DNA from: Candidatus Omnitrophota bacterium
Lineage (GTDB): Bacteria > Omnitrophota > Gorgyraeia > Tantalellales > Tantalellaceae
Assembly: GCA_049643885.1 (NCBI GenBank)
Contig: JBARQV010000027.1
Location: 3,294 to 67,293, forward strand
Direction: 5' to 3'
DNA: 64,000 nucleotides
Of the stretch, positions 29,114-57,067 are shown one piece after another. The number at the start of each line of letters is the position of its first letter. The stretch's first letter is position 1. The position numbers were made by a program, and so were the translations under genes. The notes under the pieces were generated by a model that was not told where the DNA came from, ran no database searches, and worked only from the letters and a program-made list of their open reading frames with translations.

Positions 29114-29167
29114 TTGCCCGATTTATCGGGCAAAGTTTATTGATGTAGTTGCCCAATTCATTGGGCA
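29114..29167. promoter_or_regulatory. two 20-bp perfect palindromes TTGCCCGATTTATCGGGCAA and TTGCCCAATTCATTGGGCAA, 34 bp centre-to-centre
   Basis: Read directly. They lie between the nfnB stop and the response-regulator start. They could be terminator hairpins, an operator pair, or both. Confidence 0.4.
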
Positions 29168-29187
29168 AAAACCGAAGGCGGGTAAAA

Positions 29188-29868
29188 ATGCCTAAACGGA
29201 TAACTGTGGTTGATGATGACCCCGATGTGTTGAGGGTCCTGTCGTTCCATCTTGACAGGGAAGGTTTTGCTGTCGAAGAATGCAGGAACGCCAAAAGCCT
29301 TTTTGAATCCATAAAAGACTTTAAGCCGAACCTGATCGTCCTGGATATCGGACTTCCGGACATGGACGGTTTCGAGGTATGCAAGAAGCTCAAGAAAGAC
29401 GAGAAATACGCTTCGATACCCGTTATAATGCTTACGGCAAAGGCGGAGGAAATGCACAAGGTCATGGGCCTCGAACTGGGCGCGGATGATTATGTCGTTA
29501 AGCCTTTTTCGACTAACGAATTCGTGGCGCGGGTAAAAGCTGTTTTAAGAAGGTTTGGCGAAGAGGGAAAGCCCAGGAAAGTGAAAGTGAACAACAAGAT
29601 CATTATTGACCAGGAAAAGCACGAGGTTTACGTGACGGGCAAAAAGGTAGAGCTTACGCCGGTCGAATTTAAGATCCTCGAAGTCCTGTCGTTGAACAAG
29701 GGTAACGTATTGACCAGGGAAAGGATCCTCGAATATCTCTGGGGCGATGAGAAGATAGTCGTTGAAAGGACGATCGACGTCCATATACGCCATTTGAGGG
29801 AAAAACTCGGAAAAACAGCAAATTTAATCAAAAATGTACGTGGAGTTGGGTATAAATTAGAAGTTTAA
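29188..29868 (+). CDS. OmpR/PhoB-family two-component response regulator (orphan; no kinase adjacent)
   Basis: Receiver domain (VVDDDPDV...LIVLDIGLPDMDGF...MLTAK) plus winged-helix DNA-binding domain (LTPVEFKILE...VRGVGYKL). Confidence 0.85.
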   Translation: MPKRITVVDDDPDVLRVLSFHLDREGFAVEECRNAKSLFESIKDFKPNLIVLDIGLPDMDGFEVCKKLKKDEKYASIPVIMLTAKAEEMHKVMGLELGADDYVVKPFSTNEFVARVKAVLRRFGEEGKPRKVKVNNKIIIDQEKHEVYVTGKKVELTPVEFKILEVLSLNKGNVLTRERILEYLWGDEKIVVERTIDVHIRHLREKLGKTANLIKNVRGVGYKLEV

Positions 29869-30107
29869 ATATCCAGATATCCCCAAAAAAAGCACAATTA
29901 AAAGTTTAATTAGCTAGATAGCGCCAAAAATCCCTCCATTTTTAATTAACCCAAATTTAATCAAATTCAAATAATTACTTAACGTGCATGCTATATACTT
30001 GAAGTGTATGGCGAATACATATATATATGTGTATTCGCTTGAAATACGTTGAAATGTTAGGTAAACTAAAAGAGTGTAGCAAAAGACGCTCTTTCTTCTT
30101 TGAAAAT

Positions 30108-30235
30108 TCGCGAAAGGCAAACCCCGTGAAAGCGGGGGGCGCAAAGCTTGAGAGCCTAAAGCCGTTGGCTATGGCAGTCAGTTGCCGAATGGGAAAAATT
30201 AAAAACCCATAGCTTCTCAGGCTATGGGTTTTTTG
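30108..30235 (+). promoter_or_regulatory. c-di-GMP-I (GEMM) riboswitch-like leader, copy 1, with terminator expression platform
   Basis: AAAGGCAAACC; P2 hairpin CCCCGUG-AAA-GCGGGG carrying a GAAA tetraloop; GGCGCAAAGC; tetraloop receptor CCUAAAG...CUAUGG. The arrangement is close to the Vibrio Vc2 class-I aptamer. A terminator follows at 30205-30235 (ACCCAUAGC-UUCUCAG-GCUAUGGGU-U6). Confidence 0.8.
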
Positions 30236-30248
30236 CTATATACGATGC

Positions 30249-33200
30249 ATGGTGAGGTTGGCAGAAATGAACAATAACAATTCTTTAAGAGTATGTATTA
30301 TTATCCTGGCAATGTTATTTGCCTGGACGAATTGTGTCTACTCTCTGCCGAAAGTCGACGAGGTCGTATCCGGCGAAGCAGAAGTAAAGATGGTCGATCC
30401 CAACACCATGCAGATCAATGCCACCGACAACACCATCATAAATTACCAATCATTTAACATCATGGAACACGAATCGGTTATCATCTCTCTCCCGAATTCA
30501 AGCAGCGAGATCCTTAACCGGGTGATAGGGCCTGACCGCAGCGACCTCTTTGGTAACCTGTCATGTAACGGGATATTTATCCTCGTGAACCAGAACGGGA
30601 TCTATGTGGGGCCGAACGCTAATATAGAAGCGGCAAGCGCGATCCTTTCGACAAGGGACATAACCGACTCCGATTTTATCGATGGGCAATATCTATTCCA
30701 GAAACTCTCCGATGAAGAGATGGACATGCTCCTCCTCAACGAGGGCACCATAAGGATCCAGGACGGCGGCTTCGGCGTCCTGATAGCCGGGGCGATAGAG
30801 AACAATGGTAAGATCATAGCCCCGTGCGGTAAGATAGTCCTGGCAGGGGGAGACGCCATAAAGCTTAACATGTCGGCGAATGGCCTGATCTCCGTCGCCA
30901 TCCTGGAGAAAACGGCTTCCAAAATATATGACCATGAAGGGAACCCCATACTTGACCAGATCAAGAATACCGGCGAACTTCGGGCGAACGGGGGCGCCGT
31001 TATTCTCAAGGCGGAAAGCGTAACCGATGTCTTTAGAAGCGCTATAAACCTGGAAGGGGTGGTCGAGGCCAACAGGGTAGAGGACAAAGACGGTGTTATA
31101 AGCATAGTGGCCGATAATGATGTAACGATAAACGCGGAAATGGCAGCAACTAGCATTGATATTAAGACTGAATATGATATTGACCTGGACGCTAATATCG
31201 TTGCTTCCGAAGGCGACATACTTCTTTTTGCCGATTATGACGGAGACGGGATCGGCAGCTTCAGGCAACACGGCGGCCTGATCGAGGCGACAGGTGAAGG
31301 GGATATTTATATCGAAGGCTCCGGGGAAATGGTCCTTGGGGCCGTCAAGACAGAGCTGGGTGCGATCAAGATAGGCACCCAAAGGGAGCCTTTTTCCATA
31401 ACGGGCGAACCTCATTATATCCATTCAAAGGGAGATTTTGAGATCACCGCGATGGATGAGGGCGAGGAGGTGACCACCCTCCATACCAGCCGGGGAGATG
31501 TCCTGAAATACAACACCACCGGCAAGGTGATCCTTGAGGCGGCGGACGGCAGGATCGAACAGCTGATCCAGGAGCCGTTGCCGGCGGGATATCTGGAACT
31601 GAAGGCCAGGACATTTGACGTTAATTCAGAAGCAGATGTTACAGTTATCAATGATATTGATAGTAATATTTATATTGAAAAGCTGATAGAGATCTCGGAA
31701 GATGTAGTTTCCCTGGAAGGCGAAACGACCGGCAGGGTCACGTATCTTATCTCGAATGATATTGTCCTCCAGACCCCTCATGACGTGGACACTGCCCCCG
31801 GGGTTATTATCCCGGGAGATAATGTCAAGATAACCGCCAGAAGAATAGGGTCAAACGACTCACCTGTGGGTATTTCTGCCAACCTCACCTATATCCATAG
31901 GATCCAGGGAGACATCGTCATCTCCGAGATCTGGGGTCTCGGGACAACAATATGCATCAGGGGTCCTGACCCGGATACGAACCCGGATAGCTGGGGAGCG
32001 ATTAATTTAAATAAAAATACAGACCTTATATTGGAGGCCTCTCAAGGAGGTCTTTTTATATCTGAAAATTGTGCTCTTCAAGCACAAAATCTCACATTAA
32101 TCGCAAGCCAGGGCATAGAAAATTACGGCTCTTTATTGGTCGAGAACGGAACCCTCACCCTTACGGCGGAAGGCGCCGTAATAAGCCTTGGCTCCTTAAG
32201 GGCCGAGACCCTTATAGAGGAGGGCGCCTCTTTTGTGGTCGGAGGAGAATATATAGTAGGCTACGCAACCGCCCGGAACGCAGATAACGCTGTAACACTT
32301 TATACGGGAAACTATTCAGGAGAAACCAGCGATACAGGCGACATTGCTGTCAAAAATAACAACATTATAACCCTGGTGGGAGACACTATATTCCGCGCTG
32401 ACAGCGACCAGAATGGGGTCGGGGGTTTTAAGCCTCAAGTTGGCTCCAGCATTGTAGGAGGGGGATATAATCTTTGGATATATGGTTCCGAGAGCTCAAC
32501 CCTTCGGCAGATAACAGGCGTCGGGACTCTTTCGCTATATAGATCCTACGCAAGCTCAAATCCCTATTATATTGATTATAGTGCCTGGAGCGTGGGGAAT
32601 TTGATCATTGGCGCAGGTATTTCGTTAGATATCCAAGGTGTGGGTTTAACATTAAGTGGAAATTTTACAAATAACGGCACATTTGTGTCAAATAACGCCG
32701 TCATATTCAGCGGCGCCGGTACGTCAAATATTACAGGAAATATCACATTTAACAATCTTACCTGTACTACCGCCGGCAAGATCCTGAAATTCAAAGAAGG
32801 CCAGACTTTTACCATAAACGGGACCCTTGCCCTGACAGGAACATCCGGCAATGAGATCGTTCTCGACAGCCAGAACGGTTCAACGCAATTTACGTTTAAA
32901 GTGGCCAGCGCCCAGAGCGTCAGCTACATAGTTGTCGCAAACTCTAATGTCGACGATACTTCAGGCGGCAATATAACCGCCTCTAACTCTTATAATGACG
33001 GCAATAACGATACCGGACCCACGGGACGTTACTGGGCAGGGCTTCCCGCGGCAACATATTCTGTTTACGGGGCAGTATATTCCGACCAGGGTTCTACGCT
33101 GATGGGCGCGGGTGTGAATATAGTTCTGGCGAGAAACGGAGTGGTCACGGCCAACACAAATACGCTTGCGAGCGGCCAGTACGCTTTTCACGGACGAGCT

Positions 33201-36200
33201 TTCTCAGCCAATGATGTGGTTTTGATCTACATAAACAATAGTACCACAAACGGTAATGTGGTAGTAATTGTAGATGCTGCCAGGATAACCGGGGCGGATA
33301 TATACGGGAACACTGCTATCGCCAGGCACCAGACGGCGGGACCCGTCACGAACGCGACATTTTCTACAGCTAAAGGCTCCATGACGGATACGGATATAAT
33401 CTATTCGGTGTCCGGTTCCAACTTGGAACTGAATGAGGGAGTGAGCTTTGTGGTATGGACAGGCGATACATATACTCCGGGTGGAAATCTTTATTGCAAC
33501 GATGTTGTCGTGCAGTCAAGCGCTATATTCAATGCCGCCGCGGGCTCTACAATAAGCGCCTCAGGCGATTGGGCGAACAGCGGCACGTTCAATCCCAGCA
33601 CATCGACCGTTATCCTTACCGGCGGAAGCGTGCAAACGCTGACTTCAGGGGGGTCTTCGTTCAACAACCTTACGATTGCGGGCGTAGGCACGTACAGGCT
33701 TCAGGATGCCCTGAATGTTACCGGCACCCTTGCTATATCAGGGTATTCCTACAAAAAAGCGATCGTTATAGATAATACAAAAGTAAACGCTGATCTGACG
33801 AATTTTCCGGTCCTTTTCAGCGTTACCGACAGCGATCTGGCGGTGACAGGCAGCGGCGGATATGTAACGAGTTCCAACGGTTGTGACATTATCTTTACCG
33901 ATCACGCCGGGGTCCAGCTGGACCATGAGGTCGAGTCATACAACCCGGCGACCGGACAGATCATCGCATGGGTGAAGGTGCCGAGCCTGTCAAATTCCAC
34001 AGACACGACGATCTACGTCCATTACGGTAACAGCGATATCATAACCTCGCAGGAGAACCCGACAGGCGTATGGAGCAACGGTTTTGCCGCGGTCTGGCAT
34101 CTTGGTTCATCCATAAATGATTCGACAAGCAACGGCATCACAGGCACAAATAACGGGACAACGGAAGAGACGACTATCGTAAAGGTGGGCACAAGCACTT
34201 ATTTTAACGGTTCAGAATCCGATTATATCAATTATGGCGAGCCGAGCGCGCTCGATATAAGTGGGAACAACCCGATCACCATCGAAACCTGGGTATACTT
34301 TAACTCGGTCGCTGCAAACTATCAGGATTTCTTCTCAAAAGGTGACACGCAATACCACTTACAGAAAAATAACGCAGATCCCGGGGTAATACAATTTGTT
34401 ATTTATGACGGAGACTGGCAGCTTGTCCAGGCGGACAGCAATGTTTCAACAGGAACCTGGTATCATGTTGTAGGGACATATAATGGAGTAAGCGGCGGGG
34501 CACTGGAGCTTTATATAAATGGCTCCAAGCAGACAGGCAGCGACACAGCTGCATCGATCAACAATACGGCTTATAGTGTCTATATGGGCGAGAACAGCCA
34601 GTCAACCGGCCGCTACCTGGACGGATATATGGACGAAGCCCGCATATGCAACGCCTACAGGACTGGTGGCTGGATACAGACCGAGCACAATAACCAATCC
34701 TCTCCTTCGACGTTTTATCCTAATTACACTTCGGAAGCACGGACCACCGGTGACAGTGCGACGCTTTGTCTGAATGGCAAGAACCTCTCTACCGCAACAC
34801 TCAATAATACCGGGACCCTGAGGCTCCTGGGGGCAGAAACGGTAAGCATAACCACGATGGATACAGATTCAGGACTGGTTGATTATTATGGAGACGGTTC
34901 ATATACGGGACTGGCGGCGGGGGACAGCTACTTCGACCTTACGTTTTCGGGGACCGGGGTCTATACCCTTGATGCCGATCTGGACATAAACGGTGATCTT
35001 TCCTTTACGCCTACATTCCAGTACAGGAAGGAAATAACCATTTACGCCTCACAGGTGGATGCGGACGTGACCGATTTTCCGGTCCTTTTCAGCGTTACCG
35101 ATGCTGACCTGATCGATAACCTGATGCACGACGCGAATTACACTATCAAGTTCACCAACGCGACCGGGACCGAGCTGCCATATGAAGTAGAGTATTACAA
35201 TAACGCAACAGGCCAGCTGATAGCATGGGTCAAGGCCGATTCATTATCCTCGAGCACCAATACAACGCTGTGGCTGTATTACGGCTCGCTGGAAGCCGAC
35301 TCCACGGAAGCAGCGACCAGCGTGTGGAGCAACAATTATTCGGCCGTGTGGCACATGAGTGAAGCGTCGGGGACTATCTATAATTCAACATCTTATCCCA
35401 ACAACGGGACCGCCGCCGGGGGCATTACTTACGGCGCAGCCGGAAAAATAGACGGATCTGTCAGCCTTGACGGCGTTGATGATCGGATAAACTGCGGGTG
35501 GGATCCAAGCCTGTCGCCCTCGAATGCGATCACCGTTTCCCTTTGGACGCAGAATGCCGTATCTCCGGCGCAATATGACGGCATCCTCGGCAAGACAAGC
35601 AGCTTTAAATGGGACGACGGGTACGGCATGTTTTACAACAGCTCAACCGAGGTCCGTTTTTATGTATCAAATTACAGCGCGAATGTCGCTTACGCGTCCT
35701 TGACGCCCACGAACATGAATTATATTGTCGGCACGTTTGACGGTTCGAATGTGCGGATATATGTAAATGGCGTAGAGGGCACGGCAGATCCGTATGCAGG
35801 CACCATATCATCAACGGCAGCCATGTTAGTGCTGGGCCAGTTATCGGGAACTGCATACAATATCAACGGCAAGCTGGATGAAGTCCGCGTTGCCGGCACA
35901 TGGCGTCCGTCCGGCTGGATCTCAACAGAATTCAAAAACCAGAATTCTCCCGGCACGTTTTTCGGCACCGGAAGCGAGATCAGCGGCGGCGCTACCATAA
36001 ACGCAGGAAGCTATGACATCAACAGTGCAGGCGATTTTGATCTTACAAGCGGCATATTTGATGCCGGTACGGGCACGGTTATATTTGACGGGGTATCCAC
36101 CCAGACCCTGACCACGGCCTCATATGATTTTTACGGTTTGACCGTCTCCAACGCCTCCTCAAACGGTGTTCAGCTTGCAGATGCCCTTACCGTTACGAAC

Positions 36201-39200
36201 GCTCTCACCATATCGACGAATGGCGTTTTTGATCTCCAGGATAATAATATGACGGCAACAGGAGCTGTCTTTTCGAACGACGGCACGCTCAGGCTCGTCG
36301 GATCGCAGGCGATAACGGGCCTTGTTATGGACACCGATTCGGGCACGGTGGAATATACCGGCGACGGTGATGCGACTCAGGAGACCTTTACGATCAAGGA
36401 TTTCGGCGCTATCGACTATTATCACCTTTTGATAAATGACACTAATGCCACGACCGCCAACCGGGACATTATTTCCGTAGGCGTGGGAACAAACCTGAAC
36501 GTCGACGGGGATCTTACAGTTTCCGGGGGAACGTTGAATATTAACGGGCAAAGCGTCAACATCGCCGGGAATTTCAGCGTGAGCGCGAGCCCGGACGCGA
36601 GATATCAGCAGGGCGGCGGCAGCGATAATACCTTCGATGGCAGCGGTAATGCCACCATTGATACCGGGGGAACAGATGACGACCACGATCTTACCCGCTT
36701 CATCGTGGACAAGTCCGGCGGAGCCGTTCTTACCGTGATAAACAATGGCGTGGATATAAATGAGAGCCTTACGATCACCAACGGTGTTCTTAGCTTGAAT
36801 GGCCAGAATATCACAACGACCACCACATTTTCAAATTCCGGAACCCTGCGTCTTCAGGGGAATGAGAGCGTGTCTTGGACCACGAACGACACTGATTCAG
36901 GCAAATGGGAGTATGTTGGTGATGGCGATTCCCTGGCGGACACATACACGATCAAGGATTTCGGGACCCCGGATTATTATAATCTGACCATCAATTCTAC
37001 TGACGGCGTGACCGACACATTCCAGCTCGGCGCCGCATTGGATGTTGACAGAAACCTCACCATTACTTCCGGCCGGCTGGATGCCAATAGCCAGAACATC
37101 AATCTTGCCGGCAACTGGATCAAAACCGGCGGGACCTTTGACAGCGGAACTAATACCGTTACATTTGACGGGGGGAGCGCGCAGACCATGAATTCCGGCG
37201 GCACGGATACAGGAAGCGATTTTAACAACATCACCGTATCCGGCTCAACGGTCCAGTTAATAGATAACGCGGTCGATATCGACGGCACTTTGACCATAAA
37301 TTCAGGCAAGGTCTTTGACCTTAACGGCCAGGACTTCACCCTCGCGACACTTGATAACAGCGGTACCTTGCAGCTCGAGGGGACGGAGACGGTCGCGATA
37401 ACCACGATGGATACCGACTCAGGAGAGGTTCTCTATACCGGATCGGGTTCTTATACAGGCCTTGCGGCGGGGGATAACTATTACGATCTTACATTTGCCG
37501 GGATCGGGAGTTATGCTCTGGATGCCGCTTTAGACGTAAACGGCTCTCTTGCAATATCAGGTTATTCCTATAAAAAAGCGATCGTATTGGAAAGCGACCA
37601 GGTAAGCGGCACTGCCGACCTGACGGATTTTCCCGTGCTATTTAGCGTTACGGATACCGATTTGAGGACAACGGGCAACGGTGGGCAGGTAACGGATCCC
37701 AACGGTTACGATATTATCTTTGTGGATTCCAACGGGGACCAGCTCGACCACGAGGTCGAAGCGTACAACGCCGCAACCGGGCAATTGATCGCGTGGGTAA
37801 AGGTTTCCGCGCTGGATTATAATGATGACACGACAATCTATATTTATTACGGCAACAGCAACATTACAAGTTCCCGGGAGAATGCTTCCGGCGTGTGGAG
37901 TAATTCTTACGCGGCTGTATATCACCTTGGCGAAGCCGGCACCGGAACGGCAGGCGATTACCAGGATTCCACTTCAAACAGTAATGATAGCGTGAGCACG
38001 AGCAACCAGCCTTCACAGACAACCGGCAAAATCGACGACTACGGCCAGTATTTTGACGGGTCTGAGGCGATACGCATTGCCGATGCTTCTTCGCTTGAGC
38101 CGACATCCATGACCATTTCATGCTGGTTCAAAAGAGACGGAGCCCAAAAGGACTGGACCAAGATCGTGCATAAGGGGCAGGGGAATAGCCCGTTCGGTTC
38201 TTATATACTGCAATTGAGCGCGGATGAGACGGAAGCAGAGTTCCAGGTAGCCAAGACGACCCCGGACTATGCAAAGGCAAGCAGCGGGACCGGGGCTGTC
38301 GCGGATGATACCTGGTACTATCTGGTAGGGACCTACGACGGGACCACCTACGACGGGATTTTATATATTAACTCCGCAAATATCGATAGTTTTAACGATA
38401 CCGCCCCTCTTTATTATGAAACCACCGGGCTTGGGATCGGAGGGCCCGGTTATAACGCTTATAATGATGCGGCAATCGGAGTTGTAGACGAAGTCAGGAT
38501 ATCGAGTGCCGTCCGCACCCAGGGCTGGATCACCACTGAATACAACAACCAGAATACTCCCTCAGCGCTTTATCCGACTTATACGTCAGGGAGCGGCCAG
38601 ACTGCCGGCAGTGCCGGAACGCTGGACGCAGCCGGATATAACATGAACATCGGCGGCAGCTGGACGAACTCAGGGACGTTCACGCACAACAATAATACGG
38701 TCATATTTGACGCGAACGATGCCGATAATACCATTACTTCCGGCGGCTCTTCCTTTAATAATGTCACGATCTCGAGCGGCACCTATGCCATGCAGGATGC
38801 CATGGTCATAGACGGCAATCTTACCACATGTCCCTGGGCGGATGAGTATTCTTACAGGAAGACGATAACAATAGAATCGGATTACGTCGACGCGGATGTG
38901 AGCGACTTCCCGATGCTCTTCAGTGTCACCGACACGGATTTGATAGACAACGTGATGAGCGGTTCGAACTACACGATCAAGTTCACCAATTCAACCGGGA
39001 CAGAGCTTCCTTATGAAGTTGAATACTACAATAACGGGACAGGCCAGCTTATCGCCTGGGTGAAGGCGGATTCCCTGTCAGGCAGCACCGATACGACCCT
39101 TTATCTTCACTACGGCTCGAGCGGCACTGCTTCTACGGAAAACCCGAGTGGAGTATGGAGCAATGGATATGAGGCGGTTTGGCATTTAACGGATGCGGCC

Positions 39201-44420: not shown

Positions 44421-44434
44421 TCGGGTCATCGGGT

Positions 44435-48688: not shown

Positions 48689-48967
48689 CGGAACCTCCTT
48701 TATTTGGCATGCCAAGCGAGACAGGGTTAAAGAAAATAAAGAGCAATTTTATATTGTTAATATATCACTTCTAAGCGGTTTTTGCAATGAGATTTACAAG
48801 AATGCCTTCGGGGCGAGAGACCCAGAAAGGTGTTCTGTGGGGGGGGCGAAGAAGAAAATGTTAAAAAAACAAAAGGCAGTAGAGGTTTTCTTATAATATT
48901 ACTTACCATGTGCTATACTTTAACTGGAGCTACATATACGCGTTCTTTGGGATATTTGTATAAGTAA

Positions 48968-49095
48968 CGATAAAGGCAAACCTTGCGAAAGCAGGGGACG
49001 CAAAGCTCAAGAGCCTAAAGCCGGGAGGCTATGGTAGTCAGTTGCCGAAACCGAGAATCCGTGACCCATAGTCTGTCCAGGCTATGGGTTTTTTA
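48968..49095 (+). promoter_or_regulatory. c-di-GMP-I (GEMM) riboswitch-like leader, copy 2, with terminator expression platform
   Basis: AAAGGCAAACC; P2 CCUUGCG-AAA-GCAGGG, which differs from copy 1 by compensatory changes (C-G to U-A, and U.G to C-G); GGACGCAAAGC; CCUAAAG...CUAUGG. Terminator ACCCAUAG-UCUGUCCAG-GCUAUGGGU-U6 at 49064-49095. Confidence 0.8.
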
Positions 49096-49120
49096 TTTTA
49101 GAGGTAGATAGGTGCCTGAA

Positions 49121-52100
49121 ATGAAAAGCAAAGCCGTAACGACAATCATATTCTCGGTATGTGCAATATTTTTTGCAGGGGTGGCGTGTGTCCATCCTCT
49201 TCCTGAGGTGGACGAAGTCGTTTCCGGCGAAGCCGAAATAAAAATAACCGACTCCCAGACAATGAACATCGATGCGGCAAATCATACGATCATCAATTAC
49301 ACATCGTTTAATATAAATGAAAATGAAAAAGTATACATCAACCTTCCTTCCAGGGACAGCGACATACTCAACAGGGTGACCGGGAAAACCCCAAGTTATA
49401 TTTTAGGCGATCTGTATTGCAACGGTGTCTGCATCCTCGTGAATGCGTCAGGGATCTATGTAGGACAGAACGCGAACATCGACGCGGCGGGTCTTGTTCT
49501 TTCAACTCGGGACATAACCGATTCAGATTTTATTTCCGGGAACTATGTGTTCAAAAAACTTTCCGATGAACAACTTGACATGCTTTTGTTGAACGAGGGA
49601 ACGATAAAGATCCATGACGGCGGTTTTGGTGTCTTGATCGCGGGCGCTGTTGAAAACAGGGGAACAATAATTTGTCCCGCGGGAAAGATCGTCCTGGCGG
49701 GAGGCGACGCGATAAAACTTGATATCGCGGGCAACGGATTAATTTCTGTCGCGATACTTGAAGAGACCGCGTCAAAAATCCTGGATTACGAAGGAAATCC
49801 GATAACGGACCAGATAAAAAATTCCGGGCGCCTGGAAGCGAATGGCGGAACAGTTATTTTAAAAGCGGAAAGTGTCACGGATATTTTTCAGTGCGCGATA
49901 AATCTTGAAGGCTTTGTCATGGCAAACAAAGTGGAAGAGAAAGACGGAAAGATCTGTTTGGTTGCTGATAGCGAAGTAAAACTTAACGCGGAAATGCAAG
50001 CGACACAAATCGAGATATCCGCGGGAAAAATTTCAGGCGCACCTGATCGTGTCCACGCAAAAGGTGATTATCTGAAAGTCGAAGCACCCGAAATAAACAT
50101 TCATTCAGAAGCTATAACAACTCATATTATTGACACCGACAGTGGCATAAATATTAAAGAACTTATTGAAATACCCGAAAGTAATTTAATTAAACTTATA
50201 GGCGAAGATACCGGAGAAGTAACATACATAAAAACACATAACATCACTTTAGAAACTCCCAGGGGCGATGTAAATACCGCGCCTGGCGTGGTCATACCCG
50301 GTAATGAGGTCAAAGTGTCCGCGCGGCGGATAGGCTCGCGCGACAATCCTGTTAATATTGATGCCAACCTCACCTATATTAACAGGATACAAGGCGACAT
50401 CATTGTCTCCGATATGTGGGGACTTGGGTCGACCATCTCTATCAGGGGTCCTGACCCGCACCCGGATAGTTGGGGCGCTGTTGTTTATAACGGCGGTTCT
50501 GACCTCGTTCTTGAAGCGGAAAATGTCGTTCTCTCGGGTAATGAACCTGTCCATTTATATGGAAATATTACCTTCCATAATCTCAGCTGTACCGTTCCGG
50601 GGAAAGAAATATATTTTGAAGCCGGGAAAACCTGCACCATATTGGGCGATCTGAAGATGCAGGGTGCCGATGCTCAGCACATTAAACTGCTCTCGTCCGA
50701 GGAAGGGAGTTACTGGTTTATAGACGCGCGCGGGGGCAGGGACCTTACCTATACCTGGGTCGAAGATTCCTATAATCTTGCCCCCGATGAGGTCATGATG
50801 ACGGAATCCACCAATAGGGGCGGGTGCTTCGGGTGGGATCCAACAGCCACCTGGACGGGGGCTGTGGATAACCTCTGGTCCGAGCCGGGCAACTGGATCG
50901 GTCTTGGCGGAGGGGTTATACCGGGAGCCGGGGATGATGTGGTGTTCGATGTTACCAGCAGCGCTGATTCTACCATAGACCAGGCCTTCACGATCGCTTC
51001 TTTAACGATAGATGCCGCGTATGGGGGGACCATAACACAGAGCGGTAATTTGGCCGTCTCGGGCGATTACGCGCAGTCCGGCGGGACGTTAAGCTGCACG
51101 GATCCGGCGGCACATTCTTTTACGGTCGGCGGGAGCTTCAATCTAACAGGCGGCGCGTTCAACCGCTTCACCGGGACAGGAACAAGCGGCGATCCGTTCT
51201 TAGTTAGGGATATATATGACCTTCAGGCGATAGACCTCCGTTTATACAGCTACTATAGCCTTAATAATAATGTTGATGCCGCCGTTACACAGAGTTGGAA
51301 TTCAGATGGCGCGGGTGGCTATTACGGGTTCAACCCGATAGGGAGCAGTTCCACCTGGTTCAGCGCCGTCTTCGACGGCCGGAACAACACGATATCGAAT
51401 CTTTACATTAACAGGCCTGCCGAGACCCATATCGGCCTGTTTGCCCGCACCCGCGGGGGCGGACAGGGGATACGTAACGTCGGGCTGGTCGGAGGCAGTG
51501 TCACCGGAGGCGACAGGACAGGAAGTCTTGTCGGTTACGTTGAGTATTCCGTAATAGAGAACTGTTATGCTACAACCGATGTGACAGGCACATACCGTAT
51601 GGTTGGAGGACTGGTCGGATCAGCCAGCGGTAATGGCAGGATCACCGGTTCATACGCGGAAGGAACTGTGGCGGGTGCCGGCAGCAATGTCGGGGGGCTG
51701 GTAGGGCAGGCCGGTAATAATTTTACCATCGAGAATTCTTACGCCACGGGTGCTGTAACGAATAGTTCATACAATACCGGTGGTCTGGTAGGTAATGTAA
51801 ATAACTGTACTATTACCGGCTCATATGCCACAGGTGATGTATCGAGCACAGGCAGCGGTGAAGCTACCGGCGGCTTGGTAGGTTATTTTATTTCAGGAAC
51901 CATCACTGATTGCTATGCCACTGGAAATATAATAAGTAATGCTAATCTGAGTGGTGGTCTGGTCGGTTACAGCCAGGGCACGATCAGCGGTTGTTATGCT
52001 ACCGGAGAAGTTACCGGTGCTATGAATGGCGGAGGCCTTGTCGGCGGTGTTTATCCGGGTGGTATTGTTGAGAACTCCTATGCTATGGGCGATATAATAT

Positions 52101-55100
52101 CGACTTCCGTGAATGTAGGGGGGCTTATCGGTTATTCATGGAGCGCGACGGTCAGCAATTGTTATTCCGCGGGGGTGCCGAGCGGAACGTTTAACGTGGG
52201 AGGGTTGATCGGCAGTGACAGCGGCGGTACTTACACGGCCAATTACTGGGACACGCAGACATCGGGGACGACGGATGGAGTGGGAAGTGTAGATCCCGAC
52301 CCGGCGGGCGTAACGGGCAAGACCACGGCCGAGATGAAACAGCAGGCGACGTTCAGCGGATGGGATTTTAGTAATACCTGGATAATAGATGAAGGAAGCT
52401 CATATCCGCTTCTCCAGTGGCAGCTGTATATATGGGACGCGGGCGGCGACGGCACTTCGTGGACGGATCCATTGAACTGGAACAGGGATTCAGGTTATCC
52501 GGATGACGCGGATGACAGGGTATTAATAAATACAGGTAGTGCTACTATAGTGACGCCGTTCGGCGCGTCCTTGACGATAGGATATTTGAACCTTGGAAGC
52601 GGCTTCGCGGGGACGCTGCAGATCGCTAACGCGCTGACGCTGGACAATACCGGCCAGTGGCAGGGAGGCATGGGAATAGCCGCGGGGACTCTTCAGCAGA
52701 ACGCGGACATCGCTATCTCAGGCGATTACGCCCAGTCGGGAGGAACGTTTACCTGCACCACAGGAGATGTCACCATAGGGGGCACTTTTACTCAATCAGC
52801 AGGCGAATTCAACGCTCCGGCAGGGAACCTGTATGTAAAAGGTGATTTCAGCCGCACGGGCGGAACGTTCAACCACAACTCGGGTACAATCATCTTTGAC
52901 GGAACCACCGGCATCTCGGGTTCAAGCACCAATTCCTTTAATAATGTAACGATAACAGGAGCCCTTACCGCGCCTAATGCCAATATGAATGTGGCAGGCG
53001 ACTGGACGAACAGTGGTACTTTTAACGCAGGCACAGGCACGGTGACGTTTAACGGCACCGCATCGGGCAAAGAGATCACAAACGGCACAGGTAATTCGTT
53101 CAATAATGTGCAATTCACCGGGGCCGGCGGGGAGTGGACCCTTCAGGACGACATGGGGGTGACCGGCCAATTCAAAGTAACGGACGGCGTATTTATATCA
53201 GGCACAAATGCAGTGACGCTCCAGGGGGCATCTGCGACATATTTGGCTGCGGATGTAAACAGTGCGAATACAGACTGGACCGGCGGCACATTGATCATAC
53301 TTTCAGATATGGATCAGACACTTCCTTCCAGTGAGACATATAATAATTTGCAGCTCGGCAGGGATGCCGGGACGGGTACTACTGTCTATGACATCTTGGA
53401 TACAGGCAGTACAATAAACGGCACCTGGACGATAGATGCTGACGCCAGGGTTCTTCTTGCCGCAAACGCGACCGGAGTGAACAAGGTATACGACGATACC
53501 ACGGATGCTGCTGTGACGCTTTCTGATAATCGTATGGCCGGTTGGTACGATAATTTTACTACCAGTTATTTCAGCGCTGATTTTAGCGATCAGAACGTGG
53601 GTGTCGGCAAGGCTGTCAGCGTGAATGGTATATCACTTAGCGGGTCAGACGCCGGCAAATATCAGCTCAGTTCGACAACGGCTTCAACAACAGCTGATAT
53701 TACAGCTAAACCCTTGACCATAACCGCGCAGCCCAACACAAAGGTCTACGATGACGGTGTGACCGCGGCGGCAGTGCCTTTGGTCAGCGGCCTTGAAGGA
53801 AACGATACGGTAACCGGACTTAGTGAAGTCTATGACACGCAACACGCGGGGACGGGCAAGACCCTGTCGGTTGACACATACACAGTGAATGACGGTAACA
53901 GCGGCAATAACTACTCGGTAAGTCTGGTAAGCGACACGACCGGCGAGGTTACCACAAGGCCGATAACTGTGACCGCCTTGACGGATACAAAGGTGTGCGA
54001 CGGGACAACAAGTTCGGCCGAAGTGCCTGTGATAACAGTAGGAAGTCTTGCCGGGGATGATACAGCGGACTGGACCCAGACGTTTGATACTATGAAAGCC
54101 GGCACAGACAAAGTGTTAACCCCGTCCGGCACAGTGAACGATGGGAATGGAGGCCTGAATTACGCTGTTACATTTATCACGGATGATACCGGTGTGATCC
54201 TGCCGGCAGCGGTGAGTTATTTGTTATTCATCGATCAACCTCCTGCACATGAGGCGGCTGGGGCAGTTATAACGCCGGCTATAACAGTAAACGCTTATGA
54301 CGGATATGACAACCTCTGCACGAATGACAGTTCCACGGTAATAGACATGGCGATAGACAATAATCCCGGAGGAGGAATACTATCAGGCGATACGGATAAA
54401 GTTCTTGTTAACGGTGTGGCGACATTTAATGATCTAAGCATAGATCAAAAAGGTGTAGGATATACACTGGTAACTTCCTCCGGTGCCGCGCAGCAGGATA
54501 CGTCCAATAGCTTCAATATCGGTATAGCGGTATGGGATGGCAGCGAATCGACAGCTTGGAACACTCCGGGCAACTGGGACATAGGCGACACACCTCCGGC
54601 CAGCTACGATGTGCAGATACCCGTTACCCCGAACGATCCGGTTCTTTCCGGGCCGACTACAGTAGACAACCTGACGATCAATTCCGGGGCTCAGCTTTCA
54701 GCTGGAAGTAACACCCTTACTGTTAACGGTAACTGGACAAATAACGGCACTTTCGATGCCGGCGCTTCCACCGTGATCTTCAGCGGCGGCGGGGACGCTG
54801 TTATTTCAGGATCCAATACCTTCAATAATTTACGATCCCCGGCAGGCGCGAAGCAAAGTCTTACGTTTGAAAACGGAGAGACCCAGATTATAGAGGGCAC
54901 CTTGTTCTTAAGGGGAATTGGAGAAAGCGACCTGCTGATCCTGCAAAGCGGAACGCCGGGGCAGGAGTGGTTCATAGAAAATCCAAGCGATAATAATGAT
55001 ATGGAATTCCTGGATGTGAGAGATTCCCATAACCTGGGCAGTCTCTTGATCGCTCCGGGCAGTACTCTTACTGATTGTATCGGCTGGGCGACAGCTCCGC

Positions 55101-55366
55101 CGTCACCTCCAGCGCCGCAGCCGGGGATAGCAGCGAATGAGGATGAGATTAACAATGCCGTTTACGCGAGCGACAGGATTTTCGGTGATGTAAGGAATTC
55201 GATCCAACGGGAAGAAGTAGCACGCGCTGTCCAGATAACTGGGCGGGAATTGACGGTCATGAGCTGGGAGGCAGTGGATATGATCAATATCCCTCCGGGA
55301 GATATAGGAACCGGAATAGAACGCGCGTTCGCGATAGGGGAAGAAGTTTTCAGAGTGGTGCCATGA
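49121..55366 (+). CDS. TpsA-family exoprotein (2084 aa): TPS domain + GLUG-motif repeats + MBG/YDG-type repeats
   Basis: The N-terminal ~330 aa are paralogous to TpsA-1 (LPEVDEVVSGEAEI...). The middle has GGLVG-containing GLUG repeats (SYATGxV...GGLVG). After that come repeats of the form KPLTITA..KVYDG(T/V)T.A. The ATG at 49121 is preferred over the GTG at 49112. Confidence 0.85.
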   Translation: MKSKAVTTIIFSVCAIFFAGVACVHPLPEVDEVVSGEAEIKITDSQTMNIDAANHTIINYTSFNINENEKVYINLPSRDSDILNRVTGKTPSYILGDLYCNGVCILVNASGIYVGQNANIDAAGLVLSTRDITDSDFISGNYVFKKLSDEQLDMLLLNEGTIKIHDGGFGVLIAGAVENRGTIICPAGKIVLAGGDAIKLDIAGNGLISVAILEETASKILDYEGNPITDQIKNSGRLEANGGTVILKAESVTDIFQCAINLEGFVMANKVEEKDGKICLVADSEVKLNAEMQATQIEISAGKISGAPDRVHAKGDYLKVEAPEINIHSEAITTHIIDTDSGINIKELIEIPESNLIKLIGEDTGEVTYIKTHNITLETPRGDVNTAPGVVIPGNEVKVSARRIGSRDNPVNIDANLTYINRIQGDIIVSDMWGLGSTISIRGPDPHPDSWGAVVYNGGSDLVLEAENVVLSGNEPVHLYGNITFHNLSCTVPGKEIYFEAGKTCTILGDLKMQGADAQHIKLLSSEEGSYWFIDARGGRDLTYTWVEDSYNLAPDEVMMTESTNRGGCFGWDPTATWTGAVDNLWSEPGNWIGLGGGVIPGAGDDVVFDVTSSADSTIDQAFTIASLTIDAAYGGTITQSGNLAVSGDYAQSGGTLSCTDPAAHSFTVGGSFNLTGGAFNRFTGTGTSGDPFLVRDIYDLQAIDLRLYSYYSLNNNVDAAVTQSWNSDGAGGYYGFNPIGSSSTWFSAVFDGRNNTISNLYINRPAETHIGLFARTRGGGQGIRNVGLVGGSVTGGDRTGSLVGYVEYSVIENCYATTDVTGTYRMVGGLVGSASGNGRITGSYAEGTVAGAGSNVGGLVGQAGNNFTIENSYATGAVTNSSYNTGGLVGNVNNCTITGSYATGDVSSTGSGEATGGLVGYFISGTITDCYATGNIISNANLSGGLVGYSQGTISGCYATGEVTGAMNGGGLVGGVYPGGIVENSYAMGDIISTSVNVGGLIGYSWSATVSNCYSAGVPSGTFNVGGLIGSDSGGTYTANYWDTQTSGTTDGVGSVDPDPAGVTGKTTAEMKQQATFSGWDFSNTWIIDEGSSYPLLQWQLYIWDAGGDGTSWTDPLNWNRDSGYPDDADDRVLINTGSATIVTPFGASLTIGYLNLGSGFAGTLQIANALTLDNTGQWQGGMGIAAGTLQQNADIAISGDYAQSGGTFTCTTGDVTIGGTFTQSAGEFNAPAGNLYVKGDFSRTGGTFNHNSGTIIFDGTTGISGSSTNSFNNVTITGALTAPNANMNVAGDWTNSGTFNAGTGTVTFNGTASGKEITNGTGNSFNNVQFTGAGGEWTLQDDMGVTGQFKVTDGVFISGTNAVTLQGASATYLAADVNSANTDWTGGTLIILSDMDQTLPSSETYNNLQLGRDAGTGTTVYDILDTGSTINGTWTIDADARVLLAANATGVNKVYDDTTDAAVTLSDNRMAGWYDNFTTSYFSADFSDQNVGVGKAVSVNGISLSGSDAGKYQLSSTTASTTADITAKPLTITAQPNTKVYDDGVTAAAVPLVSGLEGNDTVTGLSEVYDTQHAGTGKTLSVDTYTVNDGNSGNNYSVSLVSDTTGEVTTRPITVTALTDTKVCDGTTSSAEVPVITVGSLAGDDTADWTQTFDTMKAGTDKVLTPSGTVNDGNGGLNYAVTFITDDTGVILPAAVSYLLFIDQPPAHEAAGAVITPAITVNAYDGYDNLCTNDSSTVIDMAIDNNPGGGILSGDTDKVLVNGVATFNDLSIDQKGVGYTLVTSSGAAQQDTSNSFNIGIAVWDGSESTAWNTPGNWDIGDTPPASYDVQIPVTPNDPVLSGPTTVDNLTINSGAQLSAGSNTLTVNGNWTNNGTFDAGASTVIFSGGGDAVISGSNTFNNLRSPAGAKQSLTFENGETQIIEGTLFLRGIGESDLLILQSGTPGQEWFIENPSDNNDMEFLDVRDSHNLGSLLIAPGSTLTDCIGWATAPPSPPAPQPGIAANEDEINNAVYASDRIFGDVRNSIQREEVARAVQITGRELTVMSWEAVDMINIPPGDIGTGIERAFAIGEEVFRVVP

Positions 55367-57067
55367 TCAATATTTAAGATCGATCGAGACATGCAGCCGG
55401 CCGGGAGCCGTTTGCGTGATAGGCCTGTTGCCGACGGGAAAACCCCATTCTAATCTTACTATGCCGAATTTCATTGCCCTTATCCTTAAGCCCACACCTA
55501 CGCCTGCCAGGCTGTCGTCCGGTCTTTCGGTTTGGCTTTTCCCGCGTTTTTGACCGTAGCCGTAGTCAAAAAACACTACACCGGTTATGTCGTCCTTGAA
55601 CGGCCTGTCATCGAAAGGAAGTTTTATCTCCTCGGGGATGAAGTAGGCAGGGATCAGGATCTCAAAATTCACCTGGAAAGCGTTGTCCGCCAGGAAATCG
55701 CCTGAGGGATAACCCCGCACGGAATTTATGCCTCCAAGGCTGAATTCTTCCTGGGGAGGCAATATCTCTGAGGCGATCTGACCTTTAAATTTTGCAACGG
55801 CTCTCAAATCAAAAACCGGGAGAGATCTGGTATGGTTGATGTTCAGGTTGAAAATGGAAAACGTATTTGACGCCTGCCTTGAGGACAGGGGAGACCTGCT
55901 GCGAGCGCCGAAACCGTTTATCCCCTGTGTAAATTCCGGGTTCATGTACGTGACCGCTCCGGGATATTCATGGATCATGTTACTGCCGAAGGTCAGTATC
56001 CTCAACCTGTCCCTGTTGATCGCCCCCTGGTATATGTCGGTATTCTTGTCCTTGGCTTCGAATCCCGTGTAGATCTCTCCCCTGTAAGAGCCGTTCTGAA
56101 AAACATCCTGGTGGACGAAGAAACTGGTGGTCCGGGCTTCGGATTCAAGACCAAAGGAACCGAACTCCTTCTTGGGAGAAGACTGGCTATAACTGTACCC
56201 GTACATTATTGAAGTCCCGAAGTTCGTTATCGGGACCGAATGATAGCCGTAGATGCCCAGGAAATGTTTTCCGAAAGAGTAACCAAGGAGCAGGATATCG
56301 TCCACGAACAAAAAGTTATTATGTCTTAACCCGACACCCCATCTCGCTATTCCTGACGAAACCGTTCCTTCGTTGTCAAAAGAGCCCGTCGGGTGGATAG
56401 GGAAGCGGGTGTCCACATCGAGAGTGACGTCGGTAGTTCTGGGTTTATCCCCGGCATGAAGAGTCGCCTTTACGGTGCGGTCGGCGTTCTTATTCATAAG
56501 ATACAGGCTTTTGGACATCTTGTCATAACGAAGGATCTGGTTTTGTTTGATCGTCCAGTAGAACTTGACCATATCTTTATCAAAATACTTGTGGTCGTTG
56601 ACGTGCAAAGAGCCCATTTTTGCTTCTACCACTTGCAGTTTGACGACACCGTCCCTGATCTCCTGTGGAGGGACAAAACAGGCAGTGATTATTCCTCTCC
56701 GCAAGTATTCTCGTTCTATTTCATCTGAAAGGATGCTCAAGTCGTTTATGCTGATCTTTTTATTTTCATACTTTTCAATAAGAGACCTGAACTCTTCAGG
56801 AGGGAAGCTCTCGGTGCCTTCCAGGAGTATTTTTTTAGCGAAAAAAGTGACAGCAGGGGCTTCCGGCTTTTTCTCTTCTTCTTCGACTATCTTGGGTTTC
56901 TCAGGAGGGGCTTGCATTTCCTTTTGCGCTTCCTCGCGGAAAGGACGGTCGACTTCTTTGGTGATCTGGCCTATATCCGGCGGTTGAGCAAACGCGGCAG
57001 GCATAAGCCCGGCAAGGAAAGCGACGCAAGGCAATATAACGAAATATGTTACCTTCTTAATATTCAT
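55367..57067 (-). CDS. TpsB transporter (ShlB/FhaC/HecB family Omp85-type outer-membrane protein)
   Basis: Signal peptide. POTRA domain (ILLEGTESFPPEEFRSLIEKYENKKISINDL...LRRGIITACFVP). Conserved L6-loop VRGY motif (GGINSVRGYPSGDF). The C-terminus ends in aromatic residues (SIDLKY). Confidence 0.85.
   Translation of the reverse strand: MNIKKVTYFVILPCVAFLAGLMPAAFAQPPDIGQITKEVDRPFREEAQKEMQAPPEKPKIVEEEEKKPEAPAVTFFAKKILLEGTESFPPEEFRSLIEKYENKKISINDLSILSDEIEREYLRRGIITACFVPPQEIRDGVVKLQVVEAKMGSLHVNDHKYFDKDMVKFYWTIKQNQILRYDKMSKSLYLMNKNADRTVKATLHAGDKPRTTDVTLDVDTRFPIHPTGSFDNEGTVSSGIARWGVGLRHNNFLFVDDILLLGYSFGKHFLGIYGYHSVPITNFGTSIMYGYSYSQSSPKKEFGSFGLESEARTTSFFVHQDVFQNGSYRGEIYTGFEAKDKNTDIYQGAINRDRLRILTFGSNMIHEYPGAVTYMNPEFTQGINGFGARSRSPLSSRQASNTFSIFNLNINHTRSLPVFDLRAVAKFKGQIASEILPPQEEFSLGGINSVRGYPSGDFLADNAFQVNFEILIPAYFIPEEIKLPFDDRPFKDDITGVVFFDYGYGQKRGKSQTERPDDSLAGVGVGLRIRAMKFGIVRLEWGFPVGNRPITQTAPGRLHVSIDLKY

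Follow-up and report, generated by a model that had tools for sequence, protein, structure and literature searches.

Does a locus that sets two genes for giant two-partner secretion (TPS) exoproteins beside a single transporter gene and an opposite-strand gene for a peptidase-bearing protein form one adhesion module responsive to cyclic diguanylate (c-di-GMP), or have separate functions come to lie side by side? The locus occupies the central part of a 64,000-nucleotide stretch of Candidatus Omnitrophota bacterium DNA (assembly GCA_049643885.1, contig JBARQV010000027.1, positions 3,294 to 67,293), hereafter the window, and all positions without a locus name are window coordinates. A sequence-only reading of this DNA had proposed a dedicated c-di-GMP-responsive surface-adhesion module, with the implication that c-di-GMP promotes adhesion, in which the protein encoded between the two exoprotein genes could process or release the adhesins in the manner of LapG. 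Open reading frames (ORFs) were mapped across the window, proteins were searched against Pfam and NCBIfam, and RNAs against Rfam. The account that we consider probable is one of two functionally separate things, a riboswitch-gated type Vb secretion system and an independent effector gene. The riboswitch-controlled secretion part of the earlier proposal thus stands, and the intercalated peptidase as its helper does not.

The domains encoded by the locus mark it as a true type Vb (two-partner secretion) system. The tpsA-1 gene (30249-44420, + strand; probable start ATG 30267) encodes 4723 residues, tpsA-2 (49112-55366, + strand; probable start ATG 49121) 2084 residues, and tpsB (55367-57067, - strand) 566 residues. 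Pfam matches and motifs agree on two TpsAs and one TpsB with a POTRA domain and a VRGY motif, as the sequence-only reading had it, and, of the families it had named, TPS, ShlB, POTRA, DUF2341, Laminin_G_3, and GLUG were detected. The TPS domain (PF05860) spans residues 52-290 of TpsA-1 (E 2e-23) and 38-288 of TpsA-2 (E 1e-25), scoring 84 and 91.5 bits against a cutoff of 33.5, and TIGR01901 matches as well. Both proteins have hydrophobic N-termini and carry ILNRV and N(Q/A)(N/S)GIYVG motifs. Across 302 residues their TPS domains share 66% identity, beyond which the proteins diverge; at the DNA level identity is 66% over ~915 nt versus 47.5% in a control stretch further downstream, which bears out the claim that the two are paralogous in nucleotide sequence. 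TpsB has a signal peptide, matches ShlB (E 9e-32, 111 bits), POTRA_2 (E 2e-17, 63 bits), and Omp85 (48 bits), and carries its VRGY motif within SVRGYPSGD.

Downstream of the signal peptide and TPS domain, TpsA-1 consists of ~900 unannotated residues and seven DUF2341 + Laminin_G_3 (ConA-like lectin) modules, while TpsA-2 contains six GLUG repeats (about 800-960) and three YDG repeats (about 1440-1700) ahead of its C-terminal parts. A C-terminal module of ~95 residues is common to both proteins (35% identity). In TpsA-2 it is followed by a Pro-rich linker, PPSPPAPQP, and an 80-residue tail (residues 2005-2084; 55124-55363) with no Pfam match and no counterpart in TpsA-1. TpsA-1 would therefore be a multi-lectin protein and TpsA-2 a GLUG/YDG beta-helical one, and on these modules the two most likely serve as adhesins that bind cells or glycans. 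Giant proteins bearing Laminin_G_3 have already been discussed as adhesins in Omnitrophota (PMC10066038). Relatives of the TPS domains come nearly all from Omnitrophota or the Planctomycetes-Verrucomicrobia-Chlamydiae (PVC) group; negatives from this search are uncertain, as an expected identical entry, a 213-residue TpsA-2 fragment (L002), was not returned. Several members of the TpsA clade are complete yet short, at 437-532 residues (among P0006, P0007, P0016, P0020, and P0021, from L014, L016, L013, L012, and L008, respectively), and in one short member TPR repeats are fused to the TPS domain, so that the clade, as sampled, spans tiny to giant passengers.

Each tpsA gene is preceded by a class I c-di-GMP (c-di-GMP-I) aptamer and an intrinsic terminator. 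The aptamers, at 30106-30189 (+ strand; 75.2 bits, E 5.9e-13, a full-length match) and 48965-49049 (+ strand; 79.8 bits, E 4.5e-14), both cover positions 1-87 of Rfam model RF01051, whose gathering score is 35. Terminator hairpins with U-tracts begin 13 nt past each aptamer and lie 11-30 nt ahead of the start codons. Terminator 1 (30201-30237, + strand) reads AAAAACCCAUAGCUU-CUC-AGGCUAUGGGUUUUUU and forms a stem of 13-15 bp in the minimum free energy (MFE) fold; the terminator scan called this hairpin on the opposite strand, and the + strand hairpin was read from sequence and fold. Terminator 2 (49063-49096, + strand) was found by the scan, with 12 pairs and a U-tract. Similarity between the two leaders is confined to the aptamer and the outer portion of the terminator, and the regions upstream of the two riboswitches, including their promoters, show no similarity to each other. 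Both aptamers read AAAGGCAAAC, as does the family consensus, at the position which we tentatively take to be the equivalent of G20 in Vc2. At that equivalent, G rather than A marks c-di-GMP rather than cyclic GMP-AMP (cGAMP) as the ligand (PMC6140456).

The pairing of riboswitch and tpsA recurs in relatives. Across the ~219 kb scanned with Rfam, which comprise the window and related Omnitrophota loci, eight distinct aptamers were found (the two in the window, two in L010, and one each in L006, L012, L013, and L016), and all eight lie directly 5′ of an ORF with a TPS domain. Because every aptamer precedes a tpsA homologue and none occurs elsewhere, the association is a conserved trait of the clade and not a coincidence of the window, and the sequence-only claim of two riboswitch-preceded tpsA genes is supported. 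Counted by locus, an aptamer stands directly 5′ of the tpsA homologue in five of the ten other distinct loci (L006, L010, L012, L013, and L016). Weighing against a general rule, half of the related tpsA loci have no riboswitch; these include the tpsA-1 orthologue in L015, whose leader is plain and AT-rich. From these genomic sequences the pairing is conserved in the Omnitrophota TpsA clade without being universal. In L010 the aptamers stand in tandem upstream of the tpsA homologue (L010 3188-3283 and 3419-3512), the first followed by two terminator-like hairpins.

The transporter gene lies outside this control. Its promoter region is divergently shared with carB, with a promoter-like site at 57120-57092 and no riboswitch; since tpsB has its own promoter and lacks a riboswitch, regulation acts on the substrates and not on the transporter. 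In the model that we propose, an Omp85-family TpsB made from this promoter would export both Sec-dependent TpsA exoproteins, and the 66% identity of the TPS domains is what suggests that one TpsB serves the two. The tpsB gene is convergent with tpsA-2 and their stop codons touch (TGA 55364-55366, TCA 55367-55369), with no convincing terminator found at the junction by the terminator scan. This arrangement is as the sequence-only reading described it, but its view of the gene order as atypical is weak, for tpsB placement varies in the clade. In L006 a TpsB 49% identical to that of the window is encoded divergently, 1.7 kb upstream of the riboswitch-preceded tpsA homologue with toxin-antitoxin genes between; in L008 tpsB lies upstream of the tpsA homologue on the same strand; and other tps gene arrangements and shared TpsBs are noted in a review of TPS systems (PMC5422565). 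A metagenome scan with TpsB returned a single relative, in L005, at 23% identity.

In which direction do the switches work? Folding of the leaders leads us to regard them, with some reserve, as OFF switches, in which c-di-GMP terminates transcription. First, an overlap of the terminator with the 3′ strand of aptamer helix P1, which a simple ON design would require, occurs in none of the seven leaders, so that termination is not blocked by an aptamer locked onto its ligand; in riboswitch 1, aptamer and terminator coexist in the MFE fold. Second, terminator 5′ arms can pair with the aptamer instead. In riboswitch 2 this arm is complementary to the 3′ strand of P2, and the resulting antiterminator, GGGAGGCUAUGG : CCAUAGUCUGUCC, is the MFE structure, with a duplex energy of -18.7 kcal/mol, a value attained in 5 of 300 shuffles. 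When the nascent transcript is folded, that is, before the terminator 3′ arm exists and with terminator arms explicitly defined for each leader, 12 of 13 nucleotides of the 5′ arm of riboswitch 2 pair with the aptamer (-7.0 kcal/mol), as do 11 of 14 in L006 (-7.4 kcal/mol) and 10 of 11 in L013 (-10.2 kcal/mol), the last through a different matching sequence, UUACGACU : AGUCGUAA. The competing helix of L012 is formed by the spacer and the P1 3′ strand. Finally, all seven functional class I switches of Clostridioides difficile are OFF (PMC6366702). Because the ligand-bound aptamer is compatible with the terminator and the 5′ arm pairs with the aptamer in its place, we infer OFF switches, each tpsA being transcribed through its own riboswitch with an intrinsic-terminator expression platform. 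At high c-di-GMP the aptamer would be folded, the terminator would form, and transcription would halt ~30 nt ahead of the start codon; at low c-di-GMP the terminator 5′ arm would pair with the aptamer, the antiterminator would form, and TpsA would be made. Adhesion promoted by c-di-GMP, as the sequence-only reading implied, would then probably be the reverse of what these leaders do.

The same parts could also act as ON switches, with the TpsA adhesins made at high c-di-GMP in a classic sessile, adhesive response; we consider this possible, though distinctly the less probable direction. Under the general c-di-GMP paradigm, adhesion is expected when c-di-GMP is high, and ON switches of class I occur in other bacteria (PMC6366702). 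The leaders themselves also supply points against the OFF direction, which is read from thermodynamic folding only. The riboswitch 1 antiterminator falls 8.7 kcal/mol short of the stability of aptamer plus terminator, its arm pairing gives just -0.7 kcal/mol in the nascent transcript, and the L016 terminator arm has no partner in its aptamer, so that neither leader shows a strong aptamer-dependent antiterminator; moreover, CCCA in the riboswitch 1 terminator arm has a possible pairing partner in the spacer, the short UGGG at 30190-30193. An ON design, however, must contend with the structural compatibility of folded aptamer and terminator and with the strong aptamer-disrupting antiterminators of riboswitch 2, L006, and L013. 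In L010, further, the gene-proximal aptamer ends 4 nt ahead of the AUG and holds AGGUG within its 3′ strand, and when folded it would occlude this Shine-Dalgarno-like sequence.

A separate observation concerns the terminators. Their outer part, ACCCAUAG...CUAUGGGU(U)n, is kept among leaders with unrelated spacers and promoters, at 30203-30231 and 49063-49090 in the window, 9939-9968 in L006, 333-363 in L016, and about 3390-3410 in L010. We rejected this conservation as proof of antiterminator pairing, as the L016 aptamer is without CUAUGG and yet its leader keeps the ACCCAUAG...CUAUGGGU terminator. To the detriment of the proposed pairing, terminator conservation may thus reflect ancestry.

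The gene between the two tpsA genes encodes a protein of a quite different kind. Its ORF spans 44435-48715 (- strand), and its start is almost certainly ATG 48688, given an AAGGAGG 5 nt upstream, which yields 1417 residues (44435-48688). As the sequence-only reading stated, a 1.4-kaa protein without a TPS domain by Pfam is encoded on the opposite strand between the tpsA genes, and a divergent control region is present. The latter (48689-48964, 276 bp) carries promoter-like sites for the intercalated gene on the - strand (48787-48759 and 48760-48733) and also the promoter of the riboswitch-2/tpsA-2 unit; the - strand leader of the intercalated gene matched no RNA family and no riboswitch in Rfam. 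From the N-terminus, the protein comprises a hydrophobic segment (signal peptide or signal anchor), a coiled coil, a C39 peptidase domain, helical repeats, a Gly-rich hydrophobic stretch, a PT-TG domain, a linker, and a 119-residue terminus. The coiled coil (47399-48421, - strand; residues ~90-430) gives SMC-like coiled-coil matches, and the AlphaFold2 (AF2) model shows an antiparallel stalk of helices 90-250 and 254-389 (about 160 and 135 residues) with a predicted local distance difference test (pLDDT) of 85-94. We propose that the protein is Sec-targeted or membrane-anchored and carries this long stalk.

The C39 (double-glycine type) cysteine peptidase domain (46454-46891, - strand; residues ~600-745) matches Peptidase_C39 (PF03412) over profile positions 39-129 (E 1e-12, 48 bits against a cutoff of 22). 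In the PDB it is best matched by 6mpz, the LahT double-glycine protease (E 1e-3), through an alignment that covers the His and Asp motifs. Cys615 (SCG), His701 (NHY), and Asp717 (DP) are invariant in a two-sequence alignment (A1) of the window protein and its homologue P0002. Two points weigh against the C39 assignment: the SCG cysteine lies outside the Pfam- and PDB-aligned region, so that its catalytic role is read from the motif and its invariance, and the AF2 model of the C39 region has low confidence (pLDDT <50), the model of the N-terminal 770 residues being confident only in the coiled coil.

About 10 residues past the C39 domain lies a double-glycine-type cleavage motif, LSESEMKNIFGA (46403-46438, - strand; residues 751-762). 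The same site reads LSDEEMKGIHGA in P0002 and LSENEMKSILGA in the homologue from L003, and the three motifs, from homologues of 36-38% identity, are conserved exactly at the consensus positions of LSxxELxxIxGG/GA and variable at the x positions. C39 proteases cut the LSXXELXXIXGG consensus, with cleavage after the motif (PMC1538908). The LSxxEMKxIxGA motif occurs once among the six-frame window ORFs of at least 100 residues, and TpsA-1, TpsA-2, and TpsB do not contain even a relaxed form of the C39 cleavage motif. The simplest reading is a predicted autocleavage in cis: the C39 peptidase would cut its own chain after Gly-Ala762 and free a C-terminal effector piece made up of the amphipathic helical repeats, the PT-TG domain, and a lineage-specific terminal domain.

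That C-terminal piece has the layout of a polymorphic toxin. The amphipathic repeats (SKAVSxAxKTV..., apolipoprotein-like; 45689-46393, - strand; residues ~766-1000) form a Ser/Ala/Lys-rich region common to the window protein, P0002, and the L003 homologue, with a Pfam Apolipoprotein match below the curated cutoff (42 versus 90 bits). The PT-TG pre-toxin domain (PF14449; 45002-45211, - strand; residues ~1160-1229), which a glycine-rich hydrophobic segment precedes, is detected at E 4e-9 in the whole protein and 1.9e-10 in a fragment. An orphan domain of 119 residues (44438-44794, - strand) follows an Ala/Asp/Lys-rich linker and is the candidate effector or toxin. The N-terminal ~770 residues are 36-38% identical among the homologues and the C-termini are unrelated; P0002 ends in a ParB-like DGHHR module (Pfam ParB_N, E 0.039). 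By this architecture, which is that of a polymorphic toxin with a releasing peptidase, we take the intercalated gene product to be a Sec-targeted, self-processing C39/PT-TG polymorphic-toxin-like protein, putatively toxic. Against toxicity, no recognisable toxin fold emerged in the C-terminal domain from Pfam (no match at E up to 10), the PDB (no match), or AF2 (pLDDT 42, model unusable), and HMMER gave zero matches in 1.8 billion representative proteins, a result to be read cautiously as the identical entry was also not recovered. There is likewise no immunity-like ORF downstream of the gene, nor space for one, since only 14 nt part its stop at 44435 from that of convergent tpsA-1 at 44420.

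Two observations concern the homologues. In P0002 (L001 10001-16543), the C-terminal half holds three ~100-residue repeats, GGH(I/V)IE...ITGG...(E/S)PLER(L/I), and a LILDIGGG region, and the protein looks like a multi-effector polymorphic toxin. Beside the C39-family homologue of L003, a divergent gene (L003 8939-9814, - strand) encodes a 291-residue secretin-like protein (Secretin_N + Secretin), which may provide an outer-membrane exit route for the family. A signal peptide with C39 is, more broadly, a theme of large Omnitrophota proteins, and the authors of the two preprints on these giants speculated on C39 self-cleavage, without mention of a double-glycine site (bioRxiv 10.1101/2023.11.21.568195; 10.64898/2026.06.07.730766).

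Is this gene part of the secretion system? A genome scan with the C39 family yielded two loci only, and neither neighbourhood (L001/L004; L003) holds a TPS gene or a riboswitch. In L001/L004 the neighbours encode HEAT-repeat proteins, a receiver domain, and a 4426-residue protein lacking any Pfam domain; those in L003 are housekeeping genes and the small secretin-like gene. Conversely, no C39 gene stands beside any tpsA homologue in the tpsA loci with usable flanks. The comparative check that the sequence-only reading had suggested therefore does not show the intercalated gene conserved next to tpsA, and in these genomes it is a neighbour of the TPS genes rather than a conserved partner, an outcome that in spirit answers to one of the refuting conditions which that reading had set for itself. 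Two independent neighbourhoods are a small sample, and a lineage-specific functional link between the C39 gene and the TPS genes may exist; both considerations weigh against a strict separation. The 4426-residue protein (L001 1-7081, + strand), which is encoded upstream of the C39 homologue, has no Pfam match in its C-terminal 2359 residues, and its N-terminus lies outside the fetched DNA.

One form of such a link, which we regard as doubtful, is that the C39/PT-TG protein is coupled to the TPS adhesins without processing them, so that co-location reflects co-use. In an equally doubtful elaboration, the TpsA lectins would bind the small Omnitrophota cell to its host or prey, after which the self-cleaved, membrane-active effector would be delivered. 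The products of all four genes are envelope or secreted proteins, and the genes are set amid housekeeping genes (a gltD-like oxidoreductase gene upstream; carB, purF, and icd downstream), Omnitrophota have been proposed to be host-dependent or predatory, with giant adhesin-like proteins that in some cases carry Laminin_G_3 (PMC10066038) or C39, and a missing immunity gene fits a non-kin target. This co-use is difficult to reconcile with a neighbourhood that is not conserved in the few homologous loci at hand, with regulation that differs between the tpsA genes, which have riboswitches, and the effector gene, which has none, and with the lack of support for toxicity from Pfam, PDB, sequence search, and AF2 of the C-terminus. 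Carried furthest, the idea becomes a c-di-GMP-gated attachment and attack module in a host-dependent cell, in which low c-di-GMP would permit riboswitch read-through and TpsA tethering, a protein with a 24-nm stalk would release its PT-TG effector, and a C39-LSxxEMKxIxGA self-cleavage rule would also cut the giant C39 proteins of the phylum; this is speculative and improbable as a whole.

More improbable still is the integrated module in which high c-di-GMP turns the adhesins on and the intercalated protease processes or releases them, as LapG does LapA or CdrA. Its appeal lies in adjacency, in the 276-bp divergent control region that the protease gene shares with the riboswitch-2/tpsA-2 unit, and in precedent, since the TPS adhesin CdrA is c-di-GMP regulated and cut by LapG (PMC5422565) and in C. 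difficile riboswitches control an adhesin as well as ZmpI, the protease that releases it (PMC6366702). However, the sole protease domain is C39 and not of the C93/LapG family, the cognate double-glycine motif lies in the chain of the protease itself and is absent from TpsA-1, TpsA-2, and TpsB, and no riboswitch precedes the protease gene. C39 homologues occur away from TPS genes, tpsA homologues occur without such a neighbour, and the intercalated protein carries PT-TG and a variable C-terminus. Nor was a LapD-like gene seen among the neighbours examined, or any GGDEF, EAL, or HAMP family among the genes examined between 22628 and 63259. TAAG occurs once in TpsA-1, at residue 1721 in mid-protein, and not in TpsA-2. 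With C39 as the only protease domain and no terminal TAAG-type retention site, membership in the LapA/LapG/LapD system was rejected, and the LapG-like role once suggested for the intercalated protein falls with it.

That the TpsAs are contact-dependent inhibition (CdiA-like) toxins and not adhesins is very hard to maintain, for although they are TPS-secreted giants and the 80-residue TpsA-2 tail of unassigned function follows a Pro-rich linker, neither C-terminus has a VENN or other pre-toxin motif nearby (the only [VIL][DE]NN matches being TpsA-1 residue 183, inside the TPS domain, and a chance-level IDNN at TpsA-2 residue 1748), no Pfam toxin domain is present, the bulk of the proteins is lectin or GLUG/YDG modules, and both tpsA genes are met head-on by convergent genes that make an immunity ORF impossible. 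CdiA/CdiB membership was accordingly rejected, and, given no CdiA-type boundary, toxin domain, or room for cdiI, lectin-like adhesion is the best functional guess for both proteins.

A further layer of control may act on the first exoprotein gene. An OmpR-type response regulator (29149-29868, + strand; REC and winged-helix, Response_reg E 7e-30, Trans_reg_C E 1e-25 in Pfam) is encoded upstream of tpsA-1 with no adjoining kinase gene, its upstream neighbours being oxidoreductases. In L015, from a second metagenome-assembled genome (MAG), a regulator of 64% identity is encoded immediately ahead of a tpsA-1 orthologue, itself 64% identical, whose similarity reaches past the TPS domain. From this conserved synteny, the regulator probably adds promoter-level control of tpsA-1; the orphan regulator of the sequence-only reading is thus present, with its place beside tpsA-1 modestly supported. 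Elsewhere in the window, a 496-residue GAF + HD_5 (HD-GYP-type) protein (3803-5293, + strand) is plausibly a candidate c-di-GMP phosphodiesterase, which would place a c-di-GMP-degrading enzyme in the same genome.

Related loci hold other features. At L007 18569-20990 a POTRA_2 fragment adjoins CHASE2 and CHASE2-GGDEF genes, ~8 kb from a truncated TPS-domain gene, a possible protein-level link to c-di-GMP in a locus without a riboswitch. Toxin-antitoxin genes (ParE, PIN/MazE, and an MqsA-like antitoxin) recur between or beside tpsB and tpsA homologues (L006 8428-9521 and 5831-6465; L008 4573-5013; L011 1628-2047; L012 1128-1616). Two contigs with tpsB/tpsA homologues also contain Rfam-detected introns, a group I intron at L006 675-920 (67.9 bits) and a group II intron domain at L008 375-450 beside a reverse-transcriptase ORF.

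Every component of the locus is of a known family, whether type Vb secretion, the c-di-GMP-I riboswitch, the C39 peptidase, or the PT-TG polymorphic-toxin architecture, and no known principle is overturned. What is new is that class I c-di-GMP riboswitches are combined with tpsA genes, and repeatedly so in one clade of an uncultured phylum; no paper linking riboswitch control to two-partner secretion substrates was found in the literature searched. Through this recurrence, the question of when these uncultured and possibly host-dependent nanobacteria display their large surface proteins becomes approachable from sequence. Also new are the probable OFF polarity of the tpsA riboswitches, as modelled by folding, which if true would assign the "adhesins" to the low-c-di-GMP state and be informative on lifestyle, and the predicted double-glycine site in cis next to C39 in a Sec-targeted PT-TG protein. 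The latter gives a testable cleavage site for a protein theme common in Omnitrophota giants, and C39 together with its motif suggests a type of releasing peptidase for PT-TG toxins.

Among known systems, CdrA/CdrB of Pseudomonas aeruginosa, a TPS adhesin made under c-di-GMP control and released by LapG (PMC5422565), is the closest functional comparison for a c-di-GMP-controlled TPS adhesin. There, however, the cdrAB promoter is controlled by the protein FleQ and induced by c-di-GMP, whereas here RNA aptamers and terminators, probably repressive, take that place; and LapG belongs to another protease family and is under LapD control, whereas the C39 protein has its own site and the TpsAs have none. 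As with FhaC and its substrates FhaB/FhaS in Bordetella, or a Neisseria TpsB with several TpsAs, one TpsB is proposed here for related TpsAs and tpsB does not share an operon with the genes of its substrates, but in the window sharing is suggested by the 66% TPS identity only, and tpsB is convergent with abutting stops. The C. difficile regulon likewise has transcription-terminating c-di-GMP riboswitches governing surface proteins, with class I acting as OFF switches on flgB and zmpI and class II as ON switches on the adhesins CD2831/CD3246 (PMC6366702). Adhesins of that organism are thus switched on through class II elements, and the releasing protease is switched off through a class I element; in the window, by contrast, class I precedes the adhesin-like genes, the neighbouring protease has no riboswitch, and the cell is a diderm with type Vb secretion.

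The intercalated protein invites its own comparisons. It shares with the C39 domains of PCAT/AMS transporters (ComA, LahT) a papain-like Cys/His/Asp peptidase, with LahT150 as best structure match, and the LSxxELxxIxGG/GA motif. Unlike them, it has no fusion to an ATP-binding cassette (ABC) transporter, the peptidase being embedded in a Sec-targeted protein of 1417 residues, and its motif belongs to the same chain, in cis and C-terminal to the peptidase, and not to a separate leader peptide. With polymorphic toxins (PMC3482391; PMC13483458) it has in common a conserved N-terminal part for trafficking and processing, a peptidase within the chain, PT-TG, and variable C-termini, but it lacks a downstream immunity gene and its terminal domain is no recognised toxin. 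The 2012 catalogue lists C39-like domains as toxin domains (Tox-PL-C39) and not among its example releasing peptidases (PMC3482391), and in the text of the PT-TG survey (PMC13483458) neither Sec signal, coiled coil, and C39 together nor any mention of C39 was found. The giant signal-peptide + C39 proteins of Omnitrophota (West-Roberts et al. 2023 preprint; 2026 complete-genome preprint) belong to the same phylum and share the same N-terminal theme, by which alone they are compared here; the window protein differs in being small (1.4 kaa) and in giving a concrete predicted cleavage site.

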